A stretch of DNA of 64,000 nucleotides from an uncultured Verrucomicrobiota bacterium (GCA_964617825.1 CAZTWL010000006.1:23315-87314); one strand, 5' to 3'; shown: positions 6,171 through 51,639, counted from the first letter of the stretch. The notes: generated by a model not told the origin, from the sequence alone. Program-made: numbers and translations.

Positions 6171-6395
6171 TGGCTTTGCCTCCGGACTGTTGATTGCCGT
6201 CTGTTCGAAAATCGCCTTGTTACCAGCAACACCTCGCCTTCCAATCCTCCTTTCCAAAACAGTTCCACCCTTTCCCGCAGGCGAGGAAGATTTTTACGCG
6301 CAGACCCTGCGGTCTTTCAATTTAATAAGATGGATTAATATACGTGACATTCCTGCAATACAAGAAAATACTTTGTTCTTTACCGGCAATGAATT

Positions 6396-7310
6396 ATGAT
6401 GCCCGCGGATTTTATGGGAGCAAGCATGCCGTCAAACTGGACCAAAGCGCTGATGGAACTGATTCGGCGGACCTCGGCGGACCTGCCGCAGGATGTGGAA
6501 GCGGCCCTGCGCAAGGCCCGACGGCATGAAAAGCCGCAGTCTTCTGCGCGCTGGGCGCTCGATACCATCCTGGCCAATATCCGGTTGGCGCGCGAACGCC
6601 GGGCGCCGCTCTGCCAGGACACGGGCACGCTGATGTTTTACTGCACAATCCCCCTGCGTTTCGACACCCGCCGGTTGACCGCCGCCATCAATGCGGCTGT
6701 GCGCCAGGCCACGGTTCTGGGCAGCCTGCGGCCTAATGCGATCGATCCGCTCACGGGGTGTTCCTGTAGCAATAATCTCGGACCCGGCGCGCCGGTGATC
6801 CATTTTGAGTTCGCTCCGTGCCGGAACGTGGCCGTCCGGCTTGTCATGAAGGGCGGCGGCAGCGAGAACGTGAGCACCCAGTTCAGCCTGCCGGATGTGC
6901 GCCTCAAGGCCGGGCGCGATTTGGAAGGCGTGCGCCGCTGTCTGCTTGCGGCCGTGGTGCAGGCCCAGGGCAACGGGTGCGCGCCCGGCGTCCTGGGCGT
7001 TTGCATCGGCGGCGACCGTGCCACCGGCGCCGCCTGCGCCAAGCGCCAGTTCCTGCGGCCCTTAAACGACCACGCCCCGGACAAGTCGCTGGCCGCGCTG
7101 GAGCGCCAGGCGCTGGCCGACGCGCAAAAGCTGGGCATCGGGCCCATGGGCTTTGGCGGCGCCACCACGCTTTTGGGCGTCAAGATCGGTGCCCTGACCC
7201 GTTTGCCGGCCTGTTATTTTGTGAGCGTGGCTTACATGTGCTGGGCGTTTCGCCGGCGGGGCATCGTGCTGGATGCCGCCGGCCGAGTTGTGCGCTCATT
7301 GTACGATTGA
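6396..7310 (+). CDS. Fe-S hydro-lyase alpha subunit (class I fumarate hydratase / L(+)-tartrate dehydratase alpha-type)
   Basis: A CQDTG motif and Cys residues conserved in the FumA N-terminal catalytic domain are present. It is followed directly by the beta-type subunit gene. The start may be at 6426. Confidence 0.7.
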   Translation: MMPADFMGASMPSNWTKALMELIRRTSADLPQDVEAALRKARRHEKPQSSARWALDTILANIRLARERRAPLCQDTGTLMFYCTIPLRFDTRRLTAAINAAVRQATVLGSLRPNAIDPLTGCSCSNNLGPGAPVIHFEFAPCRNVAVRLVMKGGGSENVSTQFSLPDVRLKAGRDLEGVRRCLLAAVVQAQGNGCAPGVLGVCIGGDRATGAACAKRQFLRPLNDHAPDKSLAALERQALADAQKLGIGPMGFGGATTLLGVKIGALTRLPACYFVSVAYMCWAFRRRGIVLDAAGRVVRSLYD

Positions 7311-7342
7311 AAAGTGGCCGCACCTGAGGGCTGTAGGTCGAT

Positions 7343-7942
7343 ATGCAGATGAGGCGGCCGATGACGGAAAATCGAAAATCAAAAATGCCCGTAATCCTGA
7401 CATATCCATTTACCCCGGCGGCCGTGCGCCGGCTGAAAGTTGGCCAACAGGTGCTCCTTTCCGGAAGGATTTTCACCGGTCGCGACCGGCTGCATAAATT
7501 TTTGGCGGAAGGCGGGCGCGCGCCGGTCTCCTTGAAGCATGGGGCCATCTACCATTGCGGGCCGGTGGTGATCAGGGAAAAGGGCCAGTGGCGCGTGCGC
7601 GCTGCCGGGCCGACCACTTCCATCCGCGAAGAGCCCTACATGCCGGCAATCATCGGGCAGCAGGGCCTGACGGTGATTATCGGCAAAGGCGGAATGGGCG
7701 CGGGCACGCTGCAGGCTTGCCGCCGCTACGGGTGCGTTTACCTCCATGCCGTGGGCGGAGCCGCCCAGGTCCTGGCCGATGCGGTCAAAAATGTCGGCGG
7801 GGTCCATTTCCGGGAAACCTTTGGGCCGACGGAAGCTTTGTGGGAGCTGGAAGTCGTCGATTTTCCCTGCCTGGTGACAATGGATGCGCACGGTCACAGT
7901 TTACATGCTGCGATTGCCCAGCGGTCGGCAAACCGAATATAA
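7343..7942 (+). CDS. Fe-S hydro-lyase beta subunit (class I fumarate hydratase C-terminal-type)
   Basis: The GKGGMG motif and its size match FumA C-terminal / TtdB-type subunits. It is adjacent to the alpha subunit. An alternative start is at 7361. Confidence 0.7.
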   Translation: MQMRRPMTENRKSKMPVILTYPFTPAAVRRLKVGQQVLLSGRIFTGRDRLHKFLAEGGRAPVSLKHGAIYHCGPVVIREKGQWRVRAAGPTTSIREEPYMPAIIGQQGLTVIIGKGGMGAGTLQACRRYGCVYLHAVGGAAQVLADAVKNVGGVHFRETFGPTEALWELEVVDFPCLVTMDAHGHSLHAAIAQRSANRI

Positions 7943-7979: not shown

Positions 7980-8909
7980 ATGCGCATAATTTTCATGGGT
8001 TCAGCGGAGTTGGCTTGTCCCTGCCTTGATCGCCTGCTGGCCAATCCGGCGGACCGGGTTGTCGGCGTGGTGACCCAGCCGGATCGGCCCAAGGGGCGCG
8101 CGCTCCGGATGGCGCCCTGTCCGGTGCATGCGCATGTGGCGGGGCGGGGCATTCCCGTCATGACGCCTGATAATATCAACGCACCCGAAAGCGTGGCCGC
8201 GCTGCGGGCCTTGGCGCCGGACCTGATTGTTGTGGTGGCCTACGGCCAGTTCCTGAAGGCGGAGATCCTGACGATGGCCAGGCTCGGACCGGCCATCAAT
8301 GTGCATGCCTCGCTCCTGCCGAAATACCGCGGGGCGGCGCCCATCCAATGGGCGGTGGCCAACGGCGAATCGGAAACCGGCGTCACCACGATGTTTGTCA
8401 ATGCGCGCATGGATGCCGGCGACATGATCGATCGGCTGGTGGAACCGATCCGGCCGGAGGATACGGCCGGCAGTCTGCATGATCGCCTGGCCCGCTGCGG
8501 GGCGGACCTGCTGGCGCGAACGATCGAGGCCGCGCGGCAAGGGACGATCCGCGGCCAGCCGCAGAACGAGGCGGAGGCCACTTTTGCGCCGCGCATCAAA
8601 AAAGCCGATGGACATATCGATTGGCGCCTGCCGGCCATGCAGATCCATAATCGCGTGCGGGGCTTTAATCCCTGGCCGGGCTGCTCCTGCGAACTGCCCC
8701 CGGCGGGTATTGTCCGCGTTTTGAAAACGCGGGTGGAGCCCGGACGTAATGCGGCGGCGGGCGTCATCCTGGAAGCTGCCGGCGAGGGGCCCTTGATTCA
8801 GTCCGGAAAGGATGCCCTGCGCCTTCTGGAGGTCCAGCCGGAAGGCCGCAAAGTCATGACCGGCGCCGCCTTCCTCCGCGGCCATCCGCTGGCCGCCGGC
8901 AACCTTTAA
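7980..8909 (+). CDS. fmt: methionyl-tRNA formyltransferase
   Basis: A formyl-transferase N-domain with the SLLPKYRGAAPIQWA motif and a C-terminal Fmt domain are present. The 309-aa length fits Fmt. Confidence 0.85.
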   Translation: MRIIFMGSAELACPCLDRLLANPADRVVGVVTQPDRPKGRALRMAPCPVHAHVAGRGIPVMTPDNINAPESVAALRALAPDLIVVVAYGQFLKAEILTMARLGPAINVHASLLPKYRGAAPIQWAVANGESETGVTTMFVNARMDAGDMIDRLVEPIRPEDTAGSLHDRLARCGADLLARTIEAARQGTIRGQPQNEAEATFAPRIKKADGHIDWRLPAMQIHNRVRGFNPWPGCSCELPPAGIVRVLKTRVEPGRNAAAGVILEAAGEGPLIQSGKDALRLLEVQPEGRKVMTGAAFLRGHPLAAGNL

Positions 8910-9958
8910 TTGTTGACGGCGACGCGGCGGCCGGTGCGGTGCGACTTGTAGATTGCCAGCACGATTTCCACCGTGTGCCGCGCCGAAGCGGCGGGCACGA
9001 ACGGCGGCCGGTGCGACCGAATTGCATCGACAAAATCGGCGATTTGAGCCGGATGGCCCAGGCCATAATAGTCCTTGCCGACCGCCAGGGCGGGATCCTC
9101 GTTGAGCGCCGCCATTTCAGCCTGGATGCGTTCGGCCAGCGCCTTGTCGCCAAACACAATCTTGGCCGACTTGTTATTGCGCATTTCCACCGATCCGGCC
9201 GTGCCATGAATTGACAATGTTGAATCCCAGCCGAAGTGACTCGAGCTCGTGGCCTCGATTGTTCCCAACGCGCCTGACTTGAACTGGAGTGCGGCCGTGG
9301 CCGTGTCTTCCGTCTCGATTACGCCCTGGTGCGTCAGGTTGGTGCATGTGCCGCTGACTGACGCCACGCCGCCCATGATCCAGGCCAGGGAGTCGATAAA
9401 GTGGATGGCCTGGTTGATGAGGACCGAGCCGCCCTCCATTTCCCACGTGCCGCGCCACTTGTCAGCCCGGTAATATTCGTTGGTTCGCAGACAGAACACC
9501 TGGGTGTTGGCCGTCAGGATTGTCCCGAAGGTTCCTTCGTCAACCAGCCGCTTCATATAGCGGACAACCGGTTCGAACCGATGCTGGAACACGCCCTCGA
9601 ATACCAGTTCCGGGTGTTTGGCGTGCGCCGCCAGCATGGCCTGCATCTTGGCCGATGTTGCAGACAGGGCTTTTTCGCAAAGCACATGCTTGCCGGCCTT
9701 GAGCGCCGCCACCGCAATCGGAGAGTGGGACGCATGATCGGTGCAGATCGAAATGCCGGCAACCGACTTGTCTTTTAATACCTGGCGGAAGTCCGTCGTT
9801 GTTTTGGCGATGCCATAGGTCTCGGCCGCTTTTTTGGCCTTGGCTTCCACCAGGTCGCAGGCCCAAGCCAGTTCCACGTCCGGCAGTTTGCGATAGCTTG
9901 CCAAATGACTGGGCGAGACCACGCCGCAGCCGATGATTCCAATCCTGATTTTATTCAT
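8906..9958 (-). CDS. Gfo/Idh/MocA family NAD(P)-dependent oxidoreductase
   Basis: It has an N-terminal Rossmann fold (IGIIGCG) and an EKP/EKA motif (HVLCEKALS). The 350-aa length fits the family. Confidence 0.8.
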   Translation of the reverse strand: MNKIRIGIIGCGVVSPSHLASYRKLPDVELAWACDLVEAKAKKAAETYGIAKTTTDFRQVLKDKSVAGISICTDHASHSPIAVAALKAGKHVLCEKALSATSAKMQAMLAAHAKHPELVFEGVFQHRFEPVVRYMKRLVDEGTFGTILTANTQVFCLRTNEYYRADKWRGTWEMEGGSVLINQAIHFIDSLAWIMGGVASVSGTCTNLTHQGVIETEDTATAALQFKSGALGTIEATSSSHFGWDSTLSIHGTAGSVEMRNNKSAKIVFGDKALAERIQAEMAALNEDPALAVGKDYYGLGHPAQIADFVDAIRSHRPPFVPAASARHTVEIVLAIYKSHRTGRRVAVNN

Positions 9959-10317: not shown

Positions 10318-11322
10318 TCAGGCAAGTGTCTTGTAAAACGCCTTCTTGTTCGCTTGGCGCTCTTTTTCCTGGGCGGCATCCAGCAGATAAAGTTGCCATT
10401 CCTCCTGGAACCGGCAGGTTTGGCCGGGGGCCAGGTCGTATACGGGGCTCGTGGGCTCCAGTTCGACCATGAGCATGTGATCTTTGAATTTCGGGTCGCT
10501 GAGCCAAACGCTGACAGGCCAGTTGGCCAGGGGATACACCCCGGGAACAATGCTGTATCGCTTCATGTAAATCAAATTATCCTGGACGTAGGCCATCCAG
10601 CCGTCCGTGCCTTTCATGATGGTTTGGCAGACGGTCCCCAGCGGTTTTACCGTCAGGATGCCATCCGCATATTGAAATTGCTCGGCCGCGGCGGCGCGGC
10701 TCGATCTCGGCGAAGTAAACAATTCGCCGTCCTTCGAGCCGATGAATGCCCAGCCTTCCGGCCATTGCGCATCGGCGGTTACCGGAATGTCCAGGTTGCA
10801 TGGTCCGACTGTCCAGGTCCGATCCCAAATGCTCACTTTGTTTCTATGTTTTGACCGGTTCTGCACGGTTTGGGCAATGACGACCTTGCCGGTAGCGGGA
10901 TCGATCTCAATATCGCGCACAATTTGGAGGCCGGTTGTGGGGCCGACGGGACTGACCGCGGTCAGGTGATTCGGCGATTTGAGCTCCACGGTATATTCGC
11001 CGATCCATAAACATGGTTCCTTGACGCTGATATTTTCGCCGCCTTTTTCGTCCAACAGGTCGAATTGGCTGCCTCCGGGCATGAAAAAGCCCTTGGCGCG
11101 CAAAGTGGCGCCCCACAAGGCCGGATCCTGCCAGAAGATATTACGCCCGATGGGACCATATTCCATGATCCGCGCGCCGACATCTGCCACGACCACGATC
11201 TGCATGGATGGCGTTTGAAAGCAATAAACGTTTGACCAGCCTTTATAATCGATGCGTGTCCAGCCGTTCTGCATGTTTTCTCCAGTGGTTATTGTGTAGT
11301 TGCTTCTGTTTAGTTGTTCCAT
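10318..11322 (-). CDS. hypothetical protein (no recognisable domain)
   Basis: The six-frame ORF is 355 aa. The most likely start is at 11322 (MEQLNRS...), exactly at the terminus of the adjacent repeat. Coding-like codon usage is the only support. Confidence 0.45.
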   Translation of the reverse strand: MEQLNRSNYTITTGENMQNGWTRIDYKGWSNVYCFQTPSMQIVVVADVGARIMEYGPIGRNIFWQDPALWGATLRAKGFFMPGGSQFDLLDEKGGENISVKEPCLWIGEYTVELKSPNHLTAVSPVGPTTGLQIVRDIEIDPATGKVVIAQTVQNRSKHRNKVSIWDRTWTVGPCNLDIPVTADAQWPEGWAFIGSKDGELFTSPRSSRAAAAEQFQYADGILTVKPLGTVCQTIMKGTDGWMAYVQDNLIYMKRYSIVPGVYPLANWPVSVWLSDPKFKDHMLMVELEPTSPVYDLAPGQTCRFQEEWQLYLLDAAQEKERQANKKAFYKTLA

Positions 11323-11503
11323 TGGCGTCCCATAGGGCCGCCGAAGGGCTGAAGACTGCAGGCTGTAGTCCGTAGGTTCGAACACGCAAAATGCAGATCC
11401 ATAAAACCGAAACTATGGTTTTTGCATCTGGCTGATGATTGCCCGTTTTCCTACAGTCCACGGTCCACAGTCTACGTTCTGAGCATCCTATGGGATGCTC
11501 ATG
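11320..11503. repeat. MITE-like intergenic repeat, family B
   Basis: CATTGGCGTCCCATAGGGCCGCC...GAGCATCCTATGGGATGCTCATG. This copy is closely related to those at 37075-37270 and 38941-39128. Its termini are shared with family A. Confidence 0.8.
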
Positions 11504-11738
11504 TTGTTGTCCCTTTAATACCTGAAAATCAGATGAGTTTGTGGATTTCAGAATTCGAAGTCAATTATTATGTGGCCTTCCCGGGATAGGCGGCGGCCTT
11601 TCGGGATGGCGGATGGAGAAACGTGAGATGACATGTTCGTGATGACGAACGTGGCGAGGTGGTTGGACATTGCCGGGGATAAACGTAATACAAAATCCGA
11701 CGCTAAACCCGAAGGAGCCTATTCTGTGTAATCGGCTT

Positions 11739-13595
11739 TCAAAGCGGGATTTTGGGAGAGAAAAATATCCGCCAGTAACGGCCGGAGCGATTCCGGTTAT
11801 ACTCGAACAGACGCCAGACGAACGAAAAGTGCCTGGCATCCGTGGCGCTTGAATACATGAACAACGGCTGGAATTCGAAGTTGGTCGCATCGCCCTGGCG
11901 CTGATACTGAACCAGCCGCCACAAGAGCCGCCAGTCGGTCCCTTGCGCATCGCATTGATTGTATAGCAGGGGAAACAGCAGCTTTTTGTCGTTCCACTGC
12001 CAATAAAGGGGAAAGACGTGAAAATAATCCTGACCCCACCATACCGGGCCGACGCCCTTATTCCCGTCGACATTCCAAGCCAGGGGCAAAATCAGATTGT
12101 TGTTGGTCTTCCAGTGCCAGTAGAGCGGAAACACGTTAAGATAATCCTGGCCCCACCAGACTGGACCAATGCCCCGGTTGCCATGCACCGTCCAGGCCAG
12201 GGGCAGGAAAATGCTATTCTGATTCCAATGCCAGTAGAGCGGGAAGACGTGGCAATAATCCTTACCCCAGCAAACAGGCAAGACCCCTTTGTTATCGTTG
12301 ATGTTCCAAGCCAGGGGGACGAGCAGGCGGTTATCGCCCCATTGCCAATAGAACGGGAAGACATCGAAATAATCGTCGCCCCACCAGACCGGGCCGACCC
12401 CTTTATGATCATTGATGTTCCAGGCCAGGGGCAATAGCAGGCGGTTATCGCCCCACTGCCAGTAGAGCGGGAAGACATCGAAATAATCATCACCCCACCA
12501 GACCGGACCAATGCCCTTGTTATTGTCGATCTTCCAGGCCAGGGGCAATATAAGATGATTGTCGTCCCAGTGCCAGTAAACCGGGAAAATGTCGAAATAA
12601 TCCCGGCCCCACCAGACCGGGCCGATGCCCCGGTTATCGCGCACAGCCCAGGCGGCCGGGAATAAAATCGTATTATTGTTCCAATGCCAATATACCGGGA
12701 ATACATGGAAGTAATTGCGTCCCCACCAAACCGGGCCAACGGCCGCATTCGCATTGACCTTCCAGCCCAAGGGCAAAAGCCACCAATTCTTTCCGTGTTG
12801 CCAGTAGAACGGTACGACATGAAAATAATCTTTTCCCCAGCAGACTGGGCCAATGCCGTAATTTCCGTTGACTGTCCAGGCCAGCGGAGCCAGGATCAGA
12901 TTATTGTCCCAGTGCCAATAAACCGGAAAGATATCGAAGTAATTATCGCCCCAGAAGATGGGGCCGGCAATATTGTTGCCGCCTTCGAGCCATACCAGGG
13001 GTACCACATAAAAGTAGTTTTGGCCCCATAAAACTGGCCCAATGCCTTTATCGCCATTGAAATCCCAGGCCAGGGGCAATAGCAGGCGATTTTGACGCCA
13101 CTGCCAATAAAGGGGAAAAACGTGGAAATAATCCTGACCCCACCATACCGGGCCGACGCCTTGATTGCCGTTAATGTTCCAGGCGGCCGGAATGACCAGC
13201 CAATTTGCATCCCAATGCCAGAATAGCGGCGGCAGGCAGGCGTAATTATTGCCCCAGAAAACCAAACCGACGCCGTACGATGTGCCCACCTTGCCGCCGA
13301 TGGGAATAATTATGTAATTCTCGTTCCAGTGCCAGTAAAGGGGTATGAAGTGGAAATAATTTGTTCCCCAGAAAACGGGAACGATGTTGCCGGAAACCGC
13401 GCCCGTGGCGGTCTTCCGGCAGGCGGCCGCGCTGAATAGTATTTCACGGTCATACGAGCCGTCGGCCTGAACGGAGGAGTAGTAAAGCGGCCAAAGGGGG
13501 ATCGTGGCGGCCTGGTTCTCTGTTGCTGCGCCGGCCATGGCCATGAGACTCAGCCAGGAGGCAACCCAAGCGCAGGCAAAGCGACGTCTTAACAT
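11739..13595 (-). CDS. secreted tryptophan-rich tandem-repeat protein (about 13 copies of a 44-aa repeat GxGPVWWGxDYFxVFPLYWxWxxNxLLLPLAWNxNxNK)
   Basis: The probable start is at 13595 (MLRRRFACAWVASWLSLMAMAGAA, a signal peptide); the ORF extends to 13631. The repeats are near-perfect, with a DNA periodicity of about 132 bp. I do not recognise the family. Confidence 0.6.
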   Translation of the reverse strand: MLRRRFACAWVASWLSLMAMAGAATENQAATIPLWPLYYSSVQADGSYDREILFSAAACRKTATGAVSGNIVPVFWGTNYFHFIPLYWHWNENYIIIPIGGKVGTSYGVGLVFWGNNYACLPPLFWHWDANWLVIPAAWNINGNQGVGPVWWGQDYFHVFPLYWQWRQNRLLLPLAWDFNGDKGIGPVLWGQNYFYVVPLVWLEGGNNIAGPIFWGDNYFDIFPVYWHWDNNLILAPLAWTVNGNYGIGPVCWGKDYFHVVPFYWQHGKNWWLLPLGWKVNANAAVGPVWWGRNYFHVFPVYWHWNNNTILFPAAWAVRDNRGIGPVWWGRDYFDIFPVYWHWDDNHLILPLAWKIDNNKGIGPVWWGDDYFDVFPLYWQWGDNRLLLPLAWNINDHKGVGPVWWGDDYFDVFPFYWQWGDNRLLVPLAWNINDNKGVLPVCWGKDYCHVFPLYWHWNQNSIFLPLAWTVHGNRGIGPVWWGQDYLNVFPLYWHWKTNNNLILPLAWNVDGNKGVGPVWWGQDYFHVFPLYWQWNDKKLLFPLLYNQCDAQGTDWRLLWRLVQYQRQGDATNFEFQPLFMYSSATDARHFSFVWRLFEYNRNRSGRYWRIFFSPKIPL

Positions 13596-13646
13596 TATCT
13601 TGTCCAGTTTGAGCGGAGAATGCGACCGCAATGTGCAATGCGGCGC

Positions 13647-15821
13647 TCAACGTTTGATTGCGGGCTTCTTGGTGACGGTTTTTTGCTGCTCGATCAGGTT
13701 CATATAGGTCCGGTAGCGCAAGACGATCTGGCGCACGTAGTTGATCGGTTCCTCGCCGCGGACGAAGCCGCATTTTGCCCGGCGGGCGTATTGCGGCTTG
13801 GAAAGCAGACGCATGGCGTCCTCCACGTTGCCGAACCAGATATTCGGGTTGCGGCCCATTTGGCGGGCCAGGATGCGCGCATCCAGCACGTGGCCGGCGC
13901 CGGCGTTGTAAGAAGCCAGCGCGAAAAATACGCGGTTGCTGGCATCCAACTCCTGCGGCACGCGGTCCTGCATGACGTTCATGTATTTTACCCCGGCATG
14001 AATGCTGGTGGGCGGGTCCTTCAAATTGCGAAAGCCCATTTCTTTTGCCGTGCTCGGCAAAACCTGCATCAGTCCGCGCGCGCCGGATGGCGAGACCACG
14101 TTCGGATCGAACCGGCTTTCCTGGAACATCTGCGCCACGATCAGGCGCCAGTCGAAATTATACATGTCCGCGAACTTGCGGACCAGCGGGTCATATGGGG
14201 AAATACTGCCATCCGGATAAAGGCGCGCCTGTTCCTGCACGGCTTTCCGGATTTTAGACGGGCTGCGGAAGTAATAGTTATAAGCGATGTTGTAAGCGGT
14301 GCCGCGGTATTCTTTTTTCCAGAAGGCATTGATGGCCTGGAGCAATTGCTTATCCTTGGCGCGGACGACCCAGCCTTCCGGCTGGGGGGTCCCAATGGTC
14401 AGAACCGCCTTAATCCCGTCGAGCCAGCCCAGTGCCAGGGCTAATACTTCGTCATCCACCACCGTCAGGTCGATGGTTCCGTCGGCCACCCATTCGAGCA
14501 TATCGTCAGGTTGGGCGCCGGCCGGCGATGCCCGGCGCTTGACCTTGATGCCCTGGCTTTGCAGGTTGCCCAGCAGGGTCCAGGGATACGAGGAACGCGC
14601 CGCCATGATTTCGCGCCCGGCCAGGTCCTGGATGGTTTTGATGCGGCGCTCGGTCGTGCGGGCGACAACCGTTTCGGCCGCATCATTATACGGCACCGAA
14701 AATTCGACGCCCTGGCTCCGGCGTTCGTCGGTAACGGTCAGGAAGGCGGCAATGAAGTCGCCGTGTCCGGCTAAAAGCATGGGGATCAAAGCATCGTAAT
14801 CGGGCGCCACAACCACTTCCAGTTGCAGGTTGTTTTGTTTGGCGAACCGGCTGGCCATTTCGTATTCGAATCCGCGAAGTTCGCCTTTCCAGAGAAAATA
14901 GGTGGCGGCCGTATTGACCGTGAGCATGCGCAGAAGCTTGCGTTTCTTGATTTGCGGCCAGTCCTCCCGGTAGGCGGCGGCCGAGCGCGCGGCTATCGGC
15001 GTTTGCTTTAGATAACTGTTGAGCGAGGCCAGCAACTGCTTATTCCCCGGGCGCGCACCCCACACCAGGTTGCGGTCAATCCCCAGATCGAGCACGCGTT
15101 TGAAGTCGGAGCGATATTGCCGCACAATGTTCAGCGTAATGCTGTCGGTCAGGACCAGATCAAGCTTGCCGGCAGCGAGCCGGTCCAGCATGGCATCGTC
15201 CGAAAGCGTTTCCGGCAGAACCTGCGTACGGATTTCCGGGTAACGTCGATGCAATGCCTGGGCGGTTTCGCATTGGGCCGTATCCTTCTGCACCGCGAGC
15301 GTATGCCCTTTTAAGTCGGCAATCTGCTTCAGCGCGGGGGAACTGAGGCGCCCGGCAATAATTTCACGATAAGAAAAAAGCGGGGCTGAAAAGGCGATCT
15401 TCTTTTTCAGGGTCTCCGTGGGGGTCATGTAGCTGGCGATCAGGTCGCCTTTGCCGGCCAGCAGGGCGGCGGTCAGGTCGGCGCGGGTTTCAACGAAGAC
15501 CGCTGCCGGGCGTACGCCGATGGCGGCGCAGAATCCGATGGCCAGGTCCACTTCCCGATTGGGCGGGTCTCCGGCGCGGGGGAGATATTGCTCCGCCTGT
15601 TGTAAAACGAGAAACCGCAGGCATCCGCGTTTCTGGATGGCGGCCAGGTCGCCGGTTTCGATGTAGTCCGTGGCCGGGGCCGCGCTCTCCTCGGCGGATG
15701 GCGTGGTTTCCGGTATCGACGCGGCCGGCTCAGGCGCCTCCGGTTGCTTGCCGCAGCCGGTTGCCAGGAGCAGGAGCGCAACACCAAGCGCGATGGTTTT
15801 GTTGATCCAGTTCATTAGCAT
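13647..15821 (-). CDS. mltF: membrane-bound lytic murein transglycosylase F-like (2x SBP_bac_3 domains + C-terminal SLT domain), lipoprotein
   Basis: Signal peptide with lipobox (LLLLATGCGK). Two periplasmic solute-binding-like domains are present. A C-terminal lytic transglycosylase motif (ESRFDPNVVSPSGARGLMQV, AYNAG) is present. The start codon lies inside a repeat terminus. Confidence 0.8.
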   Translation of the reverse strand: MLMNWINKTIALGVALLLLATGCGKQPEAPEPAASIPETTPSAEESAAPATDYIETGDLAAIQKRGCLRFLVLQQAEQYLPRAGDPPNREVDLAIGFCAAIGVRPAAVFVETRADLTAALLAGKGDLIASYMTPTETLKKKIAFSAPLFSYREIIAGRLSSPALKQIADLKGHTLAVQKDTAQCETAQALHRRYPEIRTQVLPETLSDDAMLDRLAAGKLDLVLTDSITLNIVRQYRSDFKRVLDLGIDRNLVWGARPGNKQLLASLNSYLKQTPIAARSAAAYREDWPQIKKRKLLRMLTVNTAATYFLWKGELRGFEYEMASRFAKQNNLQLEVVVAPDYDALIPMLLAGHGDFIAAFLTVTDERRSQGVEFSVPYNDAAETVVARTTERRIKTIQDLAGREIMAARSSYPWTLLGNLQSQGIKVKRRASPAGAQPDDMLEWVADGTIDLTVVDDEVLALALGWLDGIKAVLTIGTPQPEGWVVRAKDKQLLQAINAFWKKEYRGTAYNIAYNYYFRSPSKIRKAVQEQARLYPDGSISPYDPLVRKFADMYNFDWRLIVAQMFQESRFDPNVVSPSGARGLMQVLPSTAKEMGFRNLKDPPTSIHAGVKYMNVMQDRVPQELDASNRVFFALASYNAGAGHVLDARILARQMGRNPNIWFGNVEDAMRLLSKPQYARRAKCGFVRGEEPINYVRQIVLRYRTYMNLIEQQKTVTKKPAIKR

Positions 15822-44282: not shown

Positions 44283-44477
44283 GTGCAAGAACAAGAACGC
44301 TGGCTCTCGGTCGAGGAGATTGCCGTCCACCTAGGCGTCAATCGGGACACGATTTACAAGTGGATTGATCGGTGTCAGATGCCCGCCCACAAGCTCGGTA
44401 AGCTTTGGAAATTCAAGGCGACCGAGGTTGACGAGTGGATTCGAGAGGGCAAAGCAGGCGAAGGGGAACGCAAGTGA
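44283..44477 (+). CDS. small excisionase/AlpA-family HTH DNA-binding protein
   Basis: 64 aa. An LSVEEIAVHLGVNRDTIYKWI helix-turn-helix is present. This is the first gene of the lower-GC island. Confidence 0.6.
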   Translation: MQEQERWLSVEEIAVHLGVNRDTIYKWIDRCQMPAHKLGKLWKFKATEVDEWIREGKAGEGERK

Positions 44478-44511
44478 ACATGACCTCGATCATGGGAATG
44501 GGACGGACGTA

Positions 44512-47500
44512 ATGCCCCAGATATTCGACAACATCGAGAAGCACCTTCTGACGGCCCTCTCCGAAGCGATGGGACTCTCGAAGAGGTCTGATTTCTGCGT
44601 CGGCTACTTCAACCTTCGCGGATGGCGGCAGATTGATTCCTTCGTCGAGAAATGGCCTGGTGGGGACGGCAACTGTTGCCGGTTAATGGTCGGCATGCAG
44701 ACCCTTCCGGCCGAGGATCTCCACGCTGCCCTCAGTCTCGCCACAACACCAGCCCGCATGGACAACGCCACGGCGCTCCGTCTGAAGAAGGCGCTGGCGG
44801 AGGAGTTCCGTAACCAGCTCTGTATCGGCGCGCCTACCGAAGATGACGAACGTGGCCTCCGCCGATTGGCCGCCCAGATCAAAGCGCAGAAGGTCGTCGT
44901 CAAACTCTTCGTCAAGCACCCGCTGCATGCCAAGCTCTACCTCCTTTTTCGCCCAGACCCGATCAACCCCATCGTCAGTTATCTCGGCAGCAGCAATCTC
45001 ACCCTGGCGGGCCTGTCCAAACAGGGCGAGTTGAACGTGGACGTGCTCGACCATGATGCCACCCAGAAACTCGCAAGGTGGTTTGAAGACCGATGGAACG
45101 ATCACTGGTGCCTCGATATCTCGAAGGAGCTGGTCGAGATCATCGAAACGAGCTGGGCGCGAGAGACGCCCATCCCGCCGTATCACATCTACCTGAAGAT
45201 CGCCTATTGCCTCTCCCAAGAGGCCCGCGCTGGCCTCACCGAGTTCCGCATCCCCAAGGAGTTCGGGAACAAGCTCTTTGATTTCCAGAAAGCTGCGGTC
45301 AAGATCGCCGCTCATCATCTGAACAAGCGTCACGGCGTTATGATCGGCGACGTGGTCGGGCTGGGCAAGACCATCATGGCAACCGCCGTGGCCCGCATCT
45401 TCGAAGATGACCACGGTCTGGAGACCCTGATCATCTGCCCGAAGAACCTCGTTCGCATGTGGGAGGACTACAAGGAGCAGTACCGGCTGCATGCCAGGGT
45501 TCTCTCCATCACCCGGGCCATTGCCGAACTGCCCGAGTGTCGCCGTTACCGTCTCGTCGTGGTGGACGAGAGTCACAACCTCCGCAACCGCGAGGGCAAG
45601 CGCTACCACGCCATCCGCGACTACATAGAGAAGAACGAAAGCCGTGTTATCCTGCTGTCGGCCACGCCTTACAACAAGAGCTACCTCGACCTGGCCAGCC
45701 AACTCCGACTCTTCGTTGCCGAAGACCGTGACCTCGGCATCCGCCCGGAGCGCTTGCTTCAGGAAGTTGGCGAGACCGAGTTCATCCGACAGCACCAGTG
45801 CGCGGTCCGTTCGCTCGCTGCTTTCGAGCACAGCGAACACCCGGACGACTGGCGTGAACTCATGCGACTCTACCTTGTCCGTCGCACGCGCAGTTTCATT
45901 CAGGACAACTATGCGCAGTATGACCCCCAGCGGAAACAGAAGTTCCTGACCTTTGAAGACGGACGCCGTTCCTATTTCCCGACGCGCGTTCCCAAGACGC
46001 TCAAGTTCCGCGTGGACGAGTGCGACAAGAACGATCAGTACGGCCGCCTCTACTGCGAGGACGTGGTCAAGATCATAAACAAACTCGATCTGCCGCGCTA
46101 TGGTCTGGGTAACTACGTCGCGCCGTCGTCGGACAAGCCCCCATCACAACCCGAGGCCAAACAGATCGAGGACCTATCCCGCGCCGGCAAACGCCTCATG
46201 GGGTTCTGTCGGACGGGCCTTTTCAAGCGTCTGGAGAGTAGCGGTGCGGTCTTCCTGCAGTCCATCGAGCGCCATATCCTACGCAACTATGTCTACATAC
46301 ATGCCATCGAGAACGGTTTTCCGGTCCCCATCGGCACGCAGGATGTGGAAATGCTCGACTCGCGCGTGTACGACGAAGATGCCGACGACGTAAACGCCCG
46401 TCTCGATATTGAGGAGGACGCGACCGAGGAAGCGGCCAACGCCTGCCAGCAACCGCTGCGCACCCCAGAGCAATTCCGTGCCAAAGCCAAAGAGGTCTAT
46501 GAGTTCTACGACAAACACGCCAAGCGCCGCTTCAAGTGGCTGCGGTCCGGCCTGTTCATCGCCGAACTGCGTGATGACCTCGAAAACGATGCCAAAAGCC
46601 TGCTGAAAATTCTGAAGAGCGCCGGGCAGTGGGAACCAGCGGCCGACACAAAACTGCAGACCCTTGCCGCCACCCTCAAGAAGACGCACCCCGGCGACAA
46701 GGTTATAATCTTTACCCAGTTCGCCGACACCGCCCGCTACCTGGAGCGCCAACTTTCTGCCATGAGCGTGGACCGTATCGCGGGTGCGACCGGCGATTCC
46801 AGCGACCCGACCCTTATCGCCTGGCGGTTCAGCCCTGTGAGCAATGGCAAGTGCGCCAGTGTCGCTCCTCTCGATGAACTTCGCGTCCTCGTTGCTACCG
46901 ATGTCCTCAGCGAAGGCCAGAACCTCCAGGATTGTCACATCGTCGTCAACTACGACCTGCCCTGGGCCATCATTCGGCTCATTCAGCGTGCGGGCCGGGT
47001 GGACCGCATCGGTCAGGAGGCGGACACCATCGTCTGTTACTCGTTCCTGCCCGCAGAGGGCGTGGAGAAGATCATCCGCCTCCGCAGTCGGGTTCGCCAG
47101 CGGCTTCAACAGAACCAAGAGGTCGTCGGGGCTGACGAACTCTTCTTCGAAGACCAGCGCGACGAAGCCAAGGCACTCAACGATCTCTACACCGAGAAGG
47201 CCGGTATCCTTGACGGCGAGGCCGACAACGAAGTGGACCTTTCGTCCTACGCTTACCAAATATGGAAGAACGCCCTTGATGCCAATCCAGAACTGGAGAA
47301 GATCGTCCCCGAACTACCGCCGGTGGTGTACAGCTCGCGACCCTGGTCCCCAACTTCCGAAAAACCCGAGGGTGTCCTGGTCTACCTCAAGACAGCTGAC
47401 GGCAACGATGCCCTGGCCTGGATGAACAAAGCTGGTGAGAGCGTCACAGAATCCCAGTACGCTATCCTGCGCGCGGCCGAGTGCAAACCGGAAACGCCGC

Positions 47501-47895
47501 ACGTGTCCCGCCATGTTAACCATCATCAACTGGTGCAGGAGGGCGTCAAACTGATCGTGAAGGAGGAGCGCGCCATCGGCGGCCAGCTCGGGCGGCCATC
47601 CGGCGCGCGCTTCCGCACCTACGAACGCCTGAAAGCCCACGCCGAGGATATTGAGGGTACGCTCTTCGAGTCGACATTGCTGCACAAGGCCATAGAACAG
47701 ATCTACCGTTACCCGCTCCGCCAAACCGCCGTTGACACACTCAACCGTCAACTTCGGTCAGGCATCACCAACCAGGCGCTCGCCGATCTCGTCATGGCCC
47801 TGTACGAAGAAGACCGGCTTTGCATCGTCCATGAGAAGGAAGAAAGCCACGAGCCCCGTATCATCTGCTCTATGGGGTTGAGGGCAGGTGAGTAG
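44512..47895 (+). CDS. PLD-like (HKD) nuclease domain fused to SNF2-family helicase (DrmC+DrmD-like)
   Basis: About 1,128 aa from the ATG at 44512. Single HKD motif (HAKLYLL...GSSNLT). SNF2 motif I (GLGKT), motif II (DESH) and helicase-C (ATDVLSEGQNLQ, QRAGRVDRIGQ) are all present. Confidence 0.8.
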   Translation: MPQIFDNIEKHLLTALSEAMGLSKRSDFCVGYFNLRGWRQIDSFVEKWPGGDGNCCRLMVGMQTLPAEDLHAALSLATTPARMDNATALRLKKALAEEFRNQLCIGAPTEDDERGLRRLAAQIKAQKVVVKLFVKHPLHAKLYLLFRPDPINPIVSYLGSSNLTLAGLSKQGELNVDVLDHDATQKLARWFEDRWNDHWCLDISKELVEIIETSWARETPIPPYHIYLKIAYCLSQEARAGLTEFRIPKEFGNKLFDFQKAAVKIAAHHLNKRHGVMIGDVVGLGKTIMATAVARIFEDDHGLETLIICPKNLVRMWEDYKEQYRLHARVLSITRAIAELPECRRYRLVVVDESHNLRNREGKRYHAIRDYIEKNESRVILLSATPYNKSYLDLASQLRLFVAEDRDLGIRPERLLQEVGETEFIRQHQCAVRSLAAFEHSEHPDDWRELMRLYLVRRTRSFIQDNYAQYDPQRKQKFLTFEDGRRSYFPTRVPKTLKFRVDECDKNDQYGRLYCEDVVKIINKLDLPRYGLGNYVAPSSDKPPSQPEAKQIEDLSRAGKRLMGFCRTGLFKRLESSGAVFLQSIERHILRNYVYIHAIENGFPVPIGTQDVEMLDSRVYDEDADDVNARLDIEEDATEEAANACQQPLRTPEQFRAKAKEVYEFYDKHAKRRFKWLRSGLFIAELRDDLENDAKSLLKILKSAGQWEPAADTKLQTLAATLKKTHPGDKVIIFTQFADTARYLERQLSAMSVDRIAGATGDSSDPTLIAWRFSPVSNGKCASVAPLDELRVLVATDVLSEGQNLQDCHIVVNYDLPWAIIRLIQRAGRVDRIGQEADTIVCYSFLPAEGVEKIIRLRSRVRQRLQQNQEVVGADELFFEDQRDEAKALNDLYTEKAGILDGEADNEVDLSSYAYQIWKNALDANPELEKIVPELPPVVYSSRPWSPTSEKPEGVLVYLKTADGNDALAWMNKAGESVTESQYAILRAAECKPETPHVSRHVNHHQLVQEGVKLIVKEERAIGGQLGRPSGARFRTYERLKAHAEDIEGTLFESTLLHKAIEQIYRYPLRQTAVDTLNRQLRSGITNQALADLVMALYEEDRLCIVHEKEESHEPRIICSMGLRAGE

Positions 47896-47931
47896 TAATT
47901 AGACAATGCAGAAACAACAAGGAGGCTTCGT

Positions 47932-48270
47932 ATGGCGGAGAAATGGACGCAGGAATTACGAAGGATTGCTTTTGCGCGTTTAGCCATGGAGTTTGGCTCG
48001 CAATATTGGGATAAAAACAAGACAGAACTATCCTTCCCAAAACTTACGACTGAGGATGAGGTGTTGGAGCAGATTGCCCGGTACCTCACATGGTTCACTG
48101 GCGAGACGTTTACGGGCAAGAACGTCAACGCACAACTCGCATGGGCAAAGACTGAGCAAAAGCAGGTCATGAAGACCCAGACCAAACAGTTCGTCCTGTG
48201 CCAGGCGGCAGCCTATGAGGTTGGTTTGATTCGCAACCAACCCGCACGTGCGACGACTATTGGTGTATGA
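47932..48270 (+). CDS. hypothetical 112-aa protein between helicase and methyltransferase genes
   Basis: The ORF has a plausible RBS and sits inside the operon. No similarity recognised. Confidence 0.4.
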   Translation: MAEKWTQELRRIAFARLAMEFGSQYWDKNKTELSFPKLTTEDEVLEQIARYLTWFTGETFTGKNVNAQLAWAKTEQKQVMKTQTKQFVLCQAAAYEVGLIRNQPARATTIGV

Positions 48271-48312
48271 TGCTTTGGCAATATAAGCTTTCAGGATTTC
48301 TTCGAAATCGGA

Positions 48313-51300
48313 GTGGATACATTCATGAACAAAGCCACCGCCCGTGAACTCCTTCGCCAGTTTGACTTCAAAGCGCTCTTCCTCAACGAACTCGGCTGGG
48401 ACGATCACGACGGCTCGCTGCCCCTCAAGGTCGGCGAGGATACTGTCACATTGACCGCGGTCGCCGAGAAGCGCGGCATGGCGGCTTACCTTTGCGTCGT
48501 GCCCGGACAGAGGCGATCCTACGACTACCAGACGCGCTGCAAGATCGAAATCCAACTCGCCAAGAGCGTCCGCGAGCATCTGGTCATTTACGCCGATCCC
48601 AACCGTCGCTTCCAGACCTGGCAGTGGGTTAAACGTGAGCCCGGCAAACCTATCGCCCGCCGCGAGCACACGCTCACCGCCAACCAATCCGGTGAGGCTC
48701 TTCTCCAGAAAATTGAAGCCCTGGAGGTCAAGATCGAGGAAGAGGATCAACTCACTCTCGTCGGCATCACCGCGCGTGCACGCCAGGCATTCGACGTGGA
48801 CCGCGTCACCAAGCGCTTCTACGACCGCTTCAAGACCGAGCACGCCGCCTTCCTCAAACAGATTGAAGGCATTGGCGACGAAGACGAGTGCGAATGGTAC
48901 GCATCGATCATGCTCAATCGTCTCAAGTTTGTGTACTTCATTCAGAAGAAGGGTTTCCTCGACCAGGACAAGGACTACCTGCGCAACCGTCTTGCCATGG
49001 TCCAGAAGACCCGACCAAAGACGAAATTCCTCACTTTCTACCGAGCTTTTCTATTGAAGCTCTTCCACGACGGCCTCGGCCGCAAGGAACGCAGTCCCGA
49101 GCTGCACAAACTTCTCGGCACTGTGCCATATCTGAATGGCGGTATCTTTGCCGTCCACCCTCTGGAGGAGAAATACACCGGGATTGATATCCCGGACAAA
49201 GCCTTCGAAAAAGTTTTTGCTTTTTTTGACCAATACCGCTGGCATTTGGACGAGCGTCCCCTCCGTGCCGACGACGAGATCAACCCCGATGTTCTCGGCT
49301 ACATCTTCGAAAAGTACATCAACCAGAAGCAGATGGGGGCCTACTACACCAAGGAAGATATTACCGAGTACATCGCCAAGAACTGCATCGTTCCCTTCAT
49401 CCTCGACCGCGTCGAAACAGACCTCAAGAAGAAACCGGACGCCTTCCGCGCCCTTTTCCAACTGTTGGCCGCCGATCCTGACCGCTACATCTACGATCCC
49501 GTTAAACACGGCGTTGTGCTACCGCTACCGCCCGAGATCGAAAAGGGTGTGGATACGAAGAAGCCGAATCTTATGGAACGCCGCGCTGCCTGGAATAAAC
49601 CCGCCTCATCCGAGTATGCCCTTCCGACCGAGATCTGGCGTGAGGTCGTCGCCCGTCGTCAGCGCTGTGCCGAGTTGCGAACTCGCCTTTCCGCCATTAT
49701 GCCCGATGCCGCCCAATCATTCACAGCAAACGAACTGATCACCCTCAATCTGAACATTCGCCAGTTTGCCCAGGACTGCATCGAGAACGCCGCCACCCCG
49801 GACGTCCTCTGGGCGTTCTGGCAGGCCATCGAACAGATCACTGTCCTCGACCCCACCTGCGGATCAGGTGCATTTCTGTTTGCGGCTGTCAACGTGCTGG
49901 AACCGCTCTACGAAGCTTGCCTGGACCGTATGAAGGCGTTTATGCTCGAATGGCGCCAATCTATCAAGGCACCGTACCCCAACTTCTACAACAAATTCGA
50001 CGCCGTCATTGCGCGCGTCGAAAAACACGCCAACGAAAAGTATTTTATCTTCAAGTCCATTATCATTCGCAATCTCTACGGCGTCGACATCATGGATGAG
50101 GCTGTCGAGATCTGCAAACTACGTCTATTTCTTAAACTTGCTGCCCAGATCGAGCCTGATTATTCTCAAGAGAATCTTGGTATAGAGCCCCTGCCGGACA
50201 TTGATTTCAATGTCCGCGCTGGCAACACGCTAGTTGGCTTTGCCACGGAGAAACAAGCCGAGGAAGTCATCCGACAGGATCTGTTGGCCTACAACACCGT
50301 TTGGCCGGAGGTTCAGCGTGATGTCAAAGAGATCGCGGAGATGTTTGCCTTGTTTCGGCAGCAACAGACAGACCTGGGTGGTGCAGTATGCTCAGAAGAT
50401 AAAGCGCGTCTTCGCAAACGTATTACGCCTCTTGAGGCGCGACTCAATCAGTATCTAGCAGATGCTTACGACATCAACACGAAGGCTGCCGTCAAGGAGT
50501 GGGTTTCAAAGCACAAACCCTTCCACTGGTTTATCGAGTTTTATGCCATTATTTCGAGTGGTGGATTCTGTGTGGTCATAGGTAACCCTCCTTATGTGGA
50601 GTGCCATAAGAACACCAAAGGGACAATTGCCCTTGTGGATGAATACAAGACGCACGATACCGCGAACCTATATCCGTTTATAGTGGAGCGTTCCACGCAT
50701 CTCGTGCGGCCCCGCGGCAGTCTCGGTGTCATTCTACCCCTCAGCGCATTCTGTACTCAGAGAATGGAACCTCTCGTTTCGCTCATCGTCGAACTTCCTG
50801 GTGACAAGTGGATCTCCCACTTCGGGTGGCGACCGGCTACACTCTTTAGTGGTGTTAACATCCCCCTGTCAATTATACTCTGCTTACCGCACTCAGGTTC
50901 ACGGCTGTATACCACGACCTTCCAAAAATGGTACCAAGAAGCCCGTGATTACTTATTTTCACTGATCCAATACGCCGACACCGAAGGATTTGTTCAGAAC
51001 AAATACGTCATCCCTAAGATCGGCAACTCTACGGAACAGTCCATTCTTCGCAAGGCCTTCTCGCAAGGTAAGACTGTTGCCGCTTACCTCGCCGGTGGGA
51101 AACAAGGCGCGACATTATACTACCGGAATACAGGTGGGCTCTATTGGCGGATCATCACCGACTTCCAACCATTGTTTGAACTAGATCACACGAGAATGGC
51201 CTCAAGCACGGAGTCAACACTCATCCTCCGCGATACCAAAGCCCTTAGTGCAATAACCGCGGTCCTTAATACCAACTTCTTCTGGCTCTACTACGTAGTC

Positions 51301-51639
51301 TATTCCTCGTTCCACCACGTAAATCCTATCGACATTCTCACCGTACCGATCGATCTTGAAAGCGTTTCGCCAGATCTGTTGAAGAAGCTCTGTGACTGTG
51401 AGCGGAGACTCATGGATGACCTTAAGGCCAAAAGTCAGATACGACTCCGCTGCCACAAGGGTGGCAACGAGAGCAGTGCCCAGACGTTCTTCCCCTCCAG
51501 ATCCAAACCACTCGTCGACGCCACGGACATCGTCGTGGCTATGCACTATGGGTTTTCCCCGCACGAACTAGACTACATTCTCAACTACGACATCAAATAC
51601 AGGACGGTAGGCACGGCCGACGAGGAGGAAGACGAATGA
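48313..51639 (+). CDS. large N6-adenine DNA methyltransferase (Eco57I/DrmMI/PglX-like, gamma-class)
   Basis: 1,108 aa. SAM motif I (VLDPTCGSGAFL) and catalytic NPPY (VIGNPPYV) are present, with long N- and C-terminal extensions. Confidence 0.8.
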   Translation: MDTFMNKATARELLRQFDFKALFLNELGWDDHDGSLPLKVGEDTVTLTAVAEKRGMAAYLCVVPGQRRSYDYQTRCKIEIQLAKSVREHLVIYADPNRRFQTWQWVKREPGKPIARREHTLTANQSGEALLQKIEALEVKIEEEDQLTLVGITARARQAFDVDRVTKRFYDRFKTEHAAFLKQIEGIGDEDECEWYASIMLNRLKFVYFIQKKGFLDQDKDYLRNRLAMVQKTRPKTKFLTFYRAFLLKLFHDGLGRKERSPELHKLLGTVPYLNGGIFAVHPLEEKYTGIDIPDKAFEKVFAFFDQYRWHLDERPLRADDEINPDVLGYIFEKYINQKQMGAYYTKEDITEYIAKNCIVPFILDRVETDLKKKPDAFRALFQLLAADPDRYIYDPVKHGVVLPLPPEIEKGVDTKKPNLMERRAAWNKPASSEYALPTEIWREVVARRQRCAELRTRLSAIMPDAAQSFTANELITLNLNIRQFAQDCIENAATPDVLWAFWQAIEQITVLDPTCGSGAFLFAAVNVLEPLYEACLDRMKAFMLEWRQSIKAPYPNFYNKFDAVIARVEKHANEKYFIFKSIIIRNLYGVDIMDEAVEICKLRLFLKLAAQIEPDYSQENLGIEPLPDIDFNVRAGNTLVGFATEKQAEEVIRQDLLAYNTVWPEVQRDVKEIAEMFALFRQQQTDLGGAVCSEDKARLRKRITPLEARLNQYLADAYDINTKAAVKEWVSKHKPFHWFIEFYAIISSGGFCVVIGNPPYVECHKNTKGTIALVDEYKTHDTANLYPFIVERSTHLVRPRGSLGVILPLSAFCTQRMEPLVSLIVELPGDKWISHFGWRPATLFSGVNIPLSIILCLPHSGSRLYTTTFQKWYQEARDYLFSLIQYADTEGFVQNKYVIPKIGNSTEQSILRKAFSQGKTVAAYLAGGKQGATLYYRNTGGLYWRIITDFQPLFELDHTRMASSTESTLILRDTKALSAITAVLNTNFFWLYYVVYSSFHHVNPIDILTVPIDLESVSPDLLKKLCDCERRLMDDLKAKSQIRLRCHKGGNESSAQTFFPSRSKPLVDATDIVVAMHYGFSPHELDYILNYDIKYRTVGTADEEEDE

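Follow-up and report, generated by a model that had tools for sequence, protein, structure and literature searches.

CROPs and choline-binding repeats (CW_binding_1) are β-hairpin solenoids in which three hairpins complete each superhelical turn. Both families are known from Gram-positive bacteria, and the hairpin repeats of choline-binding proteins and clostridial toxins use aromatic residues for stacking onto the ligand. MORN repeats, the TCP (G-box) domain of CPAP/SAS-4 and OspA form single-layer antiparallel meander sheets, and the designed tryptophan-zipper hairpins are synthetic 12-residue peptides with the pattern W-x-W/turn/W-x-W. Here, we describe a gene present within 64,000 nucleotides of DNA (the window) from an uncultured Verrucomicrobiota bacterium (GCA_964617825.1, CAZTWL010000006.1:23315-87314) whose product, termed the repeat protein, contains 13 tandem Trp-rich units. 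Like the CROPs and choline-binding repeats, this protein is predicted to be an array of aromatic-rich β-hairpins, and it would work like the known hairpin-repeat scaffolds while matching none of them by sequence.

Each unit of the repeat protein consists of three modules of 12, 13 and 13 residues (PVWWGxDYFxVF, PLYWxWxxNxLLL and PLAWxIxGxKGIG), all of which start with P-h-x-W. Three distinct hairpins per unit would match a single turn of a CROP-type solenoid, but CROP and choline-binding modules are about 20 to 30 amino acids (aa) in length, compared to 12 to 13 aa in the repeat protein, and no sequence match to CW_binding_1 was detected in Pfam scans with either the whole protein or a three-unit segment. 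The MORN and MORN_2 Pfam models also gave no sequence match. Tryptophan zippers resemble the modules, which are predicted hairpins of 12 to 13 residues in which Trp takes every other strand position around a G/N/D turn (e.g., Y-W-x-W-(G/N/D)(D/N/G)-N-x-L-L). Unlike the zippers, however, the second strand of the module has Leu, Ile or Gly, and cross-strand Trp-Trp pairing is putative.

Results

Organization of the repeat gene

An earlier note, made from the sequence of the window alone, had described positions 11739-13595 as encoding a secreted protein built from Trp-rich repeats. These coordinates were borne out. A single long open reading frame (ORF) on the minus strand spans 11739..13631 when read from a TTG, and an ATG at 13595, identical to the end coordinate of the note, is the likely start codon. 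Support for the ATG comes from an ortholog (locus L003), whose alignment starts at residue 1, and from the lack of conservation of the upstream residues present in the TTG-extended form. The features of the gene, all on the minus strand, are as follows.

11739..13595, minus: repeat gene, coding for 618 aa from its ATG (13595) to its stop codon (11739-11741)
13527..13595, minus: candidate signal peptide (residues 1-23, MLRRRFACAWVASWLSLMAMAGA), whose A-x-A-type cleavage site precedes ATENQ
13389..13526, minus: N-terminal degenerate region, aa 24-69, with an 'IPLWPLYY' motif of the kind that opens most superfamily members
11943..13388, minus: array of 13 tandem units of 38 aa/114 bp, aa 70-551, from the unit table and matches to the unit hidden Markov model
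12972..13046, minus: truncated fourth unit of 25 aa, aa 184-208, GIGPVLWGQNYFYVVPLVWLEGGNN; the L003 ortholog has the same truncated unit in this place
11742..11942, minus: conserved C-terminal domain, aa 552-618 (67 aa), carrying the superfamily signature

The N-terminus of the protein reads MLRRRFACAWVASWLSLMAMAGA/ATENQ (the slash marks the putative cleavage site) and has a basic n-region followed by a hydrophobic core with a mean Kyte-Doolittle value of 1.55. This segment, called by eye and hydropathy, looks like a typical Sec signal peptide and agrees with the description of the protein as secreted. No lipobox was observed on inspection of the N-terminal sequence. Other long ORFs that overlap the array lie in different frames or on the opposite strand (e.g., 12092..12853 on the minus strand and 12018..12437 on the plus strand) and were treated as shadows of the repeats, since only the 618-aa frame has homologs and exhibits purifying selection.

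The period of the array was evident from self-matching of the DNA, which peaked at a lag of 114 (0.578) and was 0.52 at a lag of 228, relative to a background of 0.266 ± 0.044. Tandem Repeats Finder (TRF) also reported a period of 114, with 72% matches, while secondary autocorrelation peaks at 39 and 75 nucleotides (nt; 13 and 25 aa) reflect the sub-period of the modules. A consensus built on 69 units from six proteins reads G-[VI]-G-P-V-W-W-G-x-D-Y-F-x-V-F-P-L-Y-W-x-W-x-x-N-x-L-L-[LF]-P-L-A-W-x-[IV]-x-G-x-K; residues W7, P16, W19 and P29 were invariant across all 69 units. Apart from the truncated unit of 25 aa, the only exception to the unit length in this array is one unit of 39 aa. Trp residues account for 10.2% of the whole protein.

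The unit table thus confirmed the count of 13 Trp-rich tandem repeats given in the earlier note, and the consensus string proposed there was essentially right. Other details of the unit required correction. The note had specified a unit of 44 aa/132 bp, but self-matching at a lag of 132 was at background level (0.236) and its own consensus string counts to 38 residues. Five Trp residues were counted per unit and not seven. Units described as near-identical exhibited mean identities of 53% (aa) and 63% (nt), with the closest pair reaching 89% and 86%, respectively.

Age and conservation of the array

A scan for orthologs, limited to one genome per species, detected three loci. One, L003, is from a Kiritimatiellae metagenome-assembled genome (MAG) and encodes a protein with 74% aa identity over residues 1-618; the other two, L004 and L005, are from 'Candidatus Brocadiia' (Planctomycetota) MAGs and exhibit 54% and 47% identity. 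Kiritimatiellae and Planctomycetota are both lineages of the PVC group, and the bacterium from which the window derives is itself most likely a member of Kiritimatiellae. The L003 protein is also 618 aa in length and aligns without gaps; its 13 units are laid out identically, down to the truncated one. Orthologous units of the two proteins were 76% identical and non-orthologous units only 47%. The ratio of nonsynonymous to synonymous change (dN/dS) between the two genes was ~0.14 (proportions of synonymous and nonsynonymous differences, pS and pN, of 0.58 and 0.14). The repeat gene is, therefore, a real gene under purifying selection. The shared layout, the unit identities and the dN/dS value together indicate that the array predates the split of these lineages, and these comparisons argue for an array that is old and not recently expanded.

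This result conflicts with the suggestion in the earlier note of recent expansion or ongoing recombination, which would make the gene a contingency or surface-variation locus whose recent repeat copies expand and contract by recombination. Some variation of this type was apparent. The number of units varies among more distant relatives, with 15 in L005, 19 in L004 and 16 and 19 in the metagenome loci L011 and L010, compared to 13 in both the window and L003; a few unit pairs in these relatives are 90 to 94% identical in DNA; and units 8-10 of the window protein resemble one another somewhat more than expected. Duplication or conversion of units does occur occasionally, but has not occurred recently in the window gene, in which the closest unit pair is 86% and the mean pair 63% identical in nucleotides. 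As the 74%-identical ortholog has retained the same length and layout under a low dN/dS, the contingency-locus reading is largely refuted for this gene and we assign it almost no probability. The genetics of the locus are otherwise unremarkable, with no sign of an unusual genetic mechanism, and bear on no long-standing question.

An uncharacterised superfamily of exported proteins

No curated family accounted for the repeat protein. Searches of Pfam with the whole protein (E≤1) or a three-unit segment (E≤10) gave no family match above cut-off, an NCBIfam scan of the protein gave no match and a search of PDB sequences was negative for both the repeat protein and a profile of its close family (A2). 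The statement in the earlier note that the family was not a recognised one therefore stands. A Pfam match to Ig_GlcNase was considered spurious, as it scored 19.4 bits against a cut-off of 26.3 and covered 14 residues. A superfamily profile (A6) matched ankyrin-repeat chains in PDB (4rlv_A, E 8e-7); this match was judged to be an artefact of periodic Pro and Leu residues and was rejected because ankyrin is all-helical and because the A2 profile finds nothing.

Homologs were detected by wider searches. A word-indexed search of 5.8 billion proteins produced 33 matches, only six of which were close (32 to 41% identity) and none of which had a Pfam domain. An exhaustive profile search of 1.84 billion cluster representatives returned 604 matches at E≤1e-3, with 294 at ≤1e-10 and 32 at ≤1e-30; most of the listed matches were 450 to 1300 aa in length. 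When the A6 profile, derived from 50 distant members with none from the close subgroup, was compared to all of the ORFs of the window, only the repeat gene was matched (E=4.2e-62). These searches place the repeat protein, as judged by sequence similarity, in a small uncharacterised superfamily whose members were found in Victivallis lenta, Bacteroidales, Hydrogenedentota, Planctomycetota and Kiritimatiellae MAGs.

Members of this superfamily (LWPL/FPLYW hairpin repeat plus a FSFLWRLFEYER C-terminus) have a putative signal peptide or a lipobox, an N-terminal motif and the C-terminal domain in common with the repeat protein. In distant members, the shared elements are the N-terminal LWPLxY ('NLWPLxY' in the superfamily consensus), repeats punctuated by Pro and aromatic residues, and the C-terminal domain. 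Most members differ from the repeat protein in being 500 to 1300 aa in length and in having irregular repeats that are less rich in Trp. The regular 38-aa unit with five Trp residues is limited to a rare subgroup comprising the six close matches, the three genome loci and five metagenome loci. A lipobox-like motif was present in 101 of the 175 fetched proteins that appeared to be full length, and the L004 and L005 relatives have the lipobox LIGC.

The C-terminal domain of the repeat protein has the layout ...WRLLWRLVQYQR...FEFQPLFMY...HFSFVWRLFEYNR...YWRIFFSPKIPL, and alignments indicated that this domain is kept in distant superfamily members. Within it, HFSFVWRLFEYNRNRSGRYWRIFFSPKIPL aligns with the signature F-S-h-h-W-R-h-F-x-Y-x-R/K ... 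h-h-F/Y-x-P of those members. The superfamily C-terminal signature can be summarized as "FSFLWRLFEYxR...FFxP", and a regular expression for the signature matched 96 of the 212 proteins fetched, a set that includes many fragments.

A weak link to the superfamily was observed for the NCBIfam model NF047486 (LA_1737 C-terminal domain, Leptospira), itself an uncharacterised family. This model weakly matched 20 of 50 distant superfamily members at E≤0.01 (best E 6e-17). In six members that were inspected, the matches fell within the repeat regions and scored 23 to 35 bits, below the curated cut-off of 60 bits, and no match to the repeat protein itself was obtained at E≤1. Literature searches on 'LA_1737', tryptophan-rich repeats and beta-flower found nothing on the LA_1737 family or the superfamily.

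Structural predictions

Two AlphaFold2 models were examined. The full-length model, made with a 34-row alignment as input, had a mean predicted local distance difference test score (pLDDT) of 59.9 and a predicted template modelling score (pTM) of 0.31, with pLDDT values of about 50 to 78 in the repeats. The second model contained three units plus the C-terminus and was made with an in-register alignment of non-overlapping three-unit windows; it reached a mean pLDDT of 69.2 and a pTM of 0.43, but the repeats scored only about 50 to 70 despite the in-register alignment. The C-terminal domain was predicted with higher values (84 to 92 in the full-length model and 91 to 97 in the second) and in both models consisted of three hairpins formed by six 6-residue strands.

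The full-length model was all-β, with six strands of 3 to 4 residues, i.e., three hairpins, per unit. This model and the Trp content support the suggestion in the earlier note of an aromatic-rich repeat with a β fold. In the DSSP majority assignment, the three prolines of the unit fall in the loops between hairpins and the hairpin turns are occupied by positions rich in G/N/D (8-10, 22-23 and 35-36), so that sequence and model agree on three tight hairpins per unit. The consensus and DSSP map also suggest that, in the two hairpins with two-residue turns, residues L17/W19/W21/L26/L28 and L30/W32/I34 share one face; by the same register reasoning, which was applied to the consensus and not to coordinates, these hairpins would have one strongly hydrophobic, Trp-rich face and one mixed face. 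We conclude that the repeat protein is an array of short β-hairpins. Their packing may take the form of a single meander sheet or of a solenoid with three hairpins per turn, and both a super-repeat of three distinct hairpin types and the register reasoning would fit the latter well.

Foldseek comparison of the full-length model with PDB gave a sole match below E=1e-3, to the large clostridial toxin TcsH (8jhz_A, probability 0.97, E 2.6e-5), with a TM score of only 0.14, and the remaining matches were noise; the aligned part of 8jhz_A is presumably its C-terminal repeat region. For the second model, the CROP structures of TcdB and TcdA ranked at E 0.55 to 0.69. The fold matches obtained (TcsH, MORN, CPAP G-box and OspA) are weak and generic.

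The propeller fold raised in the earlier note is unlikely on the basis of these models, whose confidence is moderate. Each 38-aa unit has six strands of 3 to 4 residues and not the four-stranded blades of about 40 to 50 aa of a propeller, a match to DDB1 had a Foldseek probability of ≤0.2, and there was no Pfam match to WD40, Kelch or PQQ. The beta-flower, a small closed barrel of 8 to 12 short strands (PMC10584680), was also considered and set aside; the Pfam models of the beta-flower/Tubby-like clan (PF21784-PF21786) gave no match to the repeat protein.

Genomic context

The co-location with mltF reported in the earlier note was confirmed, as an mltF-like gene on the same strand ends 51 nt upstream of the repeat gene.

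13647..15821, minus: mltF-like lytic transglycosylase, 724 aa, with the lipobox LLLATGC (upstream neighbour)
13596..13646, minus: 51-nt gap separating the stop codon of mltF from the start codon (ATG) of the repeat gene

The product of the mltF-like gene matched Pfam SBP_bac_3 in two stretches (7.4e-28) and SLT (8.5e-25). No promoter- or terminator-like sites were detected in the 51-nt gap by a scan whose counts equalled the shuffled expectation; such a gap would fit co-transcription with mltF. In L003, an mltF counterpart with 84% identity is also located upstream of the repeat gene. A DUF2585 gene (7142-7720, plus strand; 2e-66) lies between the two genes in L003 and is not found at that position in the window. 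A tblastn search with the window MltF found no match in the fetched homolog loci other than L003, and no Pfam-annotated mltF was present near the planctomycete loci L004 and L005. The mltF link is, therefore, limited to Kiritimatiellae.

Other homolog loci had differing neighbours. An Rce1-like CAAX protease-PDZ fusion is encoded upstream of the homolog in L004 (3445-4476) and L005 (4627-5628), and a 1267-aa BlaR1/M56-type protein (10657-14460) adjoins the homolog in L004. Homolog P0005 is flanked by rnpA, yidD and PMT-type glycosyltransferases; P0004 has GH43 and His_Phos_1 genes less than 3 kb away; P0007 comes after a large HEAT-repeat gene; P0022 has GH4 and GH36 genes as neighbours; and P0018 has Glycos_transf_4, Glycos_transf_N and Amidase_3 genes. 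These loci have a loose envelope or glycan flavour and no conserved partner.

Downstream of the repeat gene, a short intergenic tandem repeat (11574-11612, period 20, 1.9 copies, GGCCTTCCGGGATGGCGGC) is followed by a gene for a 355-aa protein (10318-11385, minus strand) with a sub-threshold match to DUF4380 (27.8 bits versus a cut-off of 29.4). A tblastn search with this protein was negative for all of the fetched loci, L003 among them. The next gene (8906..9958) encodes a Gfo/Idh/MocA oxidoreductase.

Several further genes were observed elsewhere in the window. A gene for an SNF2-helicase protein of 1176 aa that also has a PLD-like domain (44365..47895, plus strand) is followed by one for a 1108-aa Eco57I/MmeI-type methyltransferase (48313..51639, plus strand), and this gene pair (44365-51639) has the look of a defence cluster of the restriction or DISARM/BREX-like type. 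A 916-aa protein (3507-6257, minus strand) has RCC1-like repeats (RCC1_2, 1.7e-35) and FG-GAP repeats. A 997-aa protein (21001-23994, minus strand) matched ABC_sub_bind (PF04392) in three stretches (E 1.2e-142) and is unusually large for a substrate-binding protein.

Discussion

The evidence leans, by a modest degree, towards the repeat protein being an exported, non-enzymatic hairpin-repeat scaffold of the cell envelope with a conserved C-terminal cap, and the descriptive parts of this reading are held more firmly than the whole. As a scaffold, the protein would be exported by the Sec pathway with removal of the signal peptide, probably to the periplasm or outer membrane, and the 13 units would form a run of about 39 hairpins. 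Each module (P-h-x-W ... G/N/D turn ... h-h-h) would fold as a tight Trp-stabilised β-hairpin, and the three longer hairpins at the C-terminus probably act as a cap or a nucleus for the array. The resulting aromatic ladder could stack onto a periodic envelope polymer, such as the glycan strands of peptidoglycan or another polysaccharide. By analogy with the choline-binding and toxin repeats, glycan or cell-wall binding is plausible, and a scaffold that binds a periodic polymer through its aromatic ladder is the function that we prefer, although it is proposed tentatively and would be more likely to prove wrong than right. A more elaborate version, in which an array of tryptophan-zipper-like mini-hairpins forms a previously undescribed solenoid with three hairpins per turn and represents a new PVC/diderm envelope class that binds a periodic polymer, in this lineage together with MltF, is unlikely.

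The scaffold reading draws on the candidate signal peptide, the period and modules of the repeat, the ortholog of identical layout, the superfamily membership, the lipoboxes common among relatives and the all-β models. Envelope-related neighbours at several loci also speak for it, namely, mltF in the window and L003, the Glycos_transf_4, Glycos_transf_N and Amidase_3 genes near P0018 and the PMT-type glycosyltransferases near P0005. Several other observations weigh against this reading. The repeat-region pLDDT of only about 50 to 78 and the pTM values of 0.31 and 0.43 mean that the packing of the hairpins is not established. The low TM score of the TcsH match was obtained from a model with a pTM of 0.31, and the second model had no Foldseek match to PDB below E=0.19. 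Pfam scans detected no sequence link to glycan-, choline- or lipid-binding repeat families, and every source name seen among the homologs was 'hypothetical protein'. Neighbouring genes differ from one family member to another, so that the mltF link may be an accident of one lineage. Furthermore, these lineages are rich in carbohydrate-active enzymes, and glycan-related neighbours are, therefore, expected by chance.

Other functions were considered for the same array. An amphipathic, Trp-rich sheet might lie at the interface of the outer or inner membrane, lipid-anchored in the lipoprotein relatives, and bind or shield lipids. The repeat protein, however, has no lipobox, its strands are just 3 to 6 residues in length, no sequence match to MORN or to any lipid-binding family was obtained, and the hydrophobic face might just as well be buried as a core; we regard a lipid-binding role as doubtful. 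Exposed sheet edges might alternatively join molecules, as in the CPAP G-box, into a fibre, a layer or a docking platform for a protein such as MltF. The structural matches behind this self-assembly reading are weak (Foldseek E≥0.19) and no partner gene is conserved across the family, making it rather less probable again than lipid binding. An integral outer-membrane β-barrel with the repeats as its strands is highly improbable, since the predicted strands of 3 to 6 residues are too short relative to the 9 or more, approximately, that are needed to span the membrane, and since the C-terminus (...SPKIPL, with variable extensions in relatives) does not have the aromatic β-signal.

The superfamily comprises several hundred protein clusters, made up of exported proteins and lipoproteins, from phyla that have received little study, namely, Kiritimatiellota, Planctomycetota, Lentisphaerota, Bacteroidota and Hydrogenedentota. 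If the structural reading is true, the repeat protein has an uncurated type of repeat without a Pfam model, consisting of a very short, Pro-delimited, Trp-stabilised hairpin present in ~39 copies. A natural long array of such minimal hairpins would merit structure determination and might also be of use in protein design.

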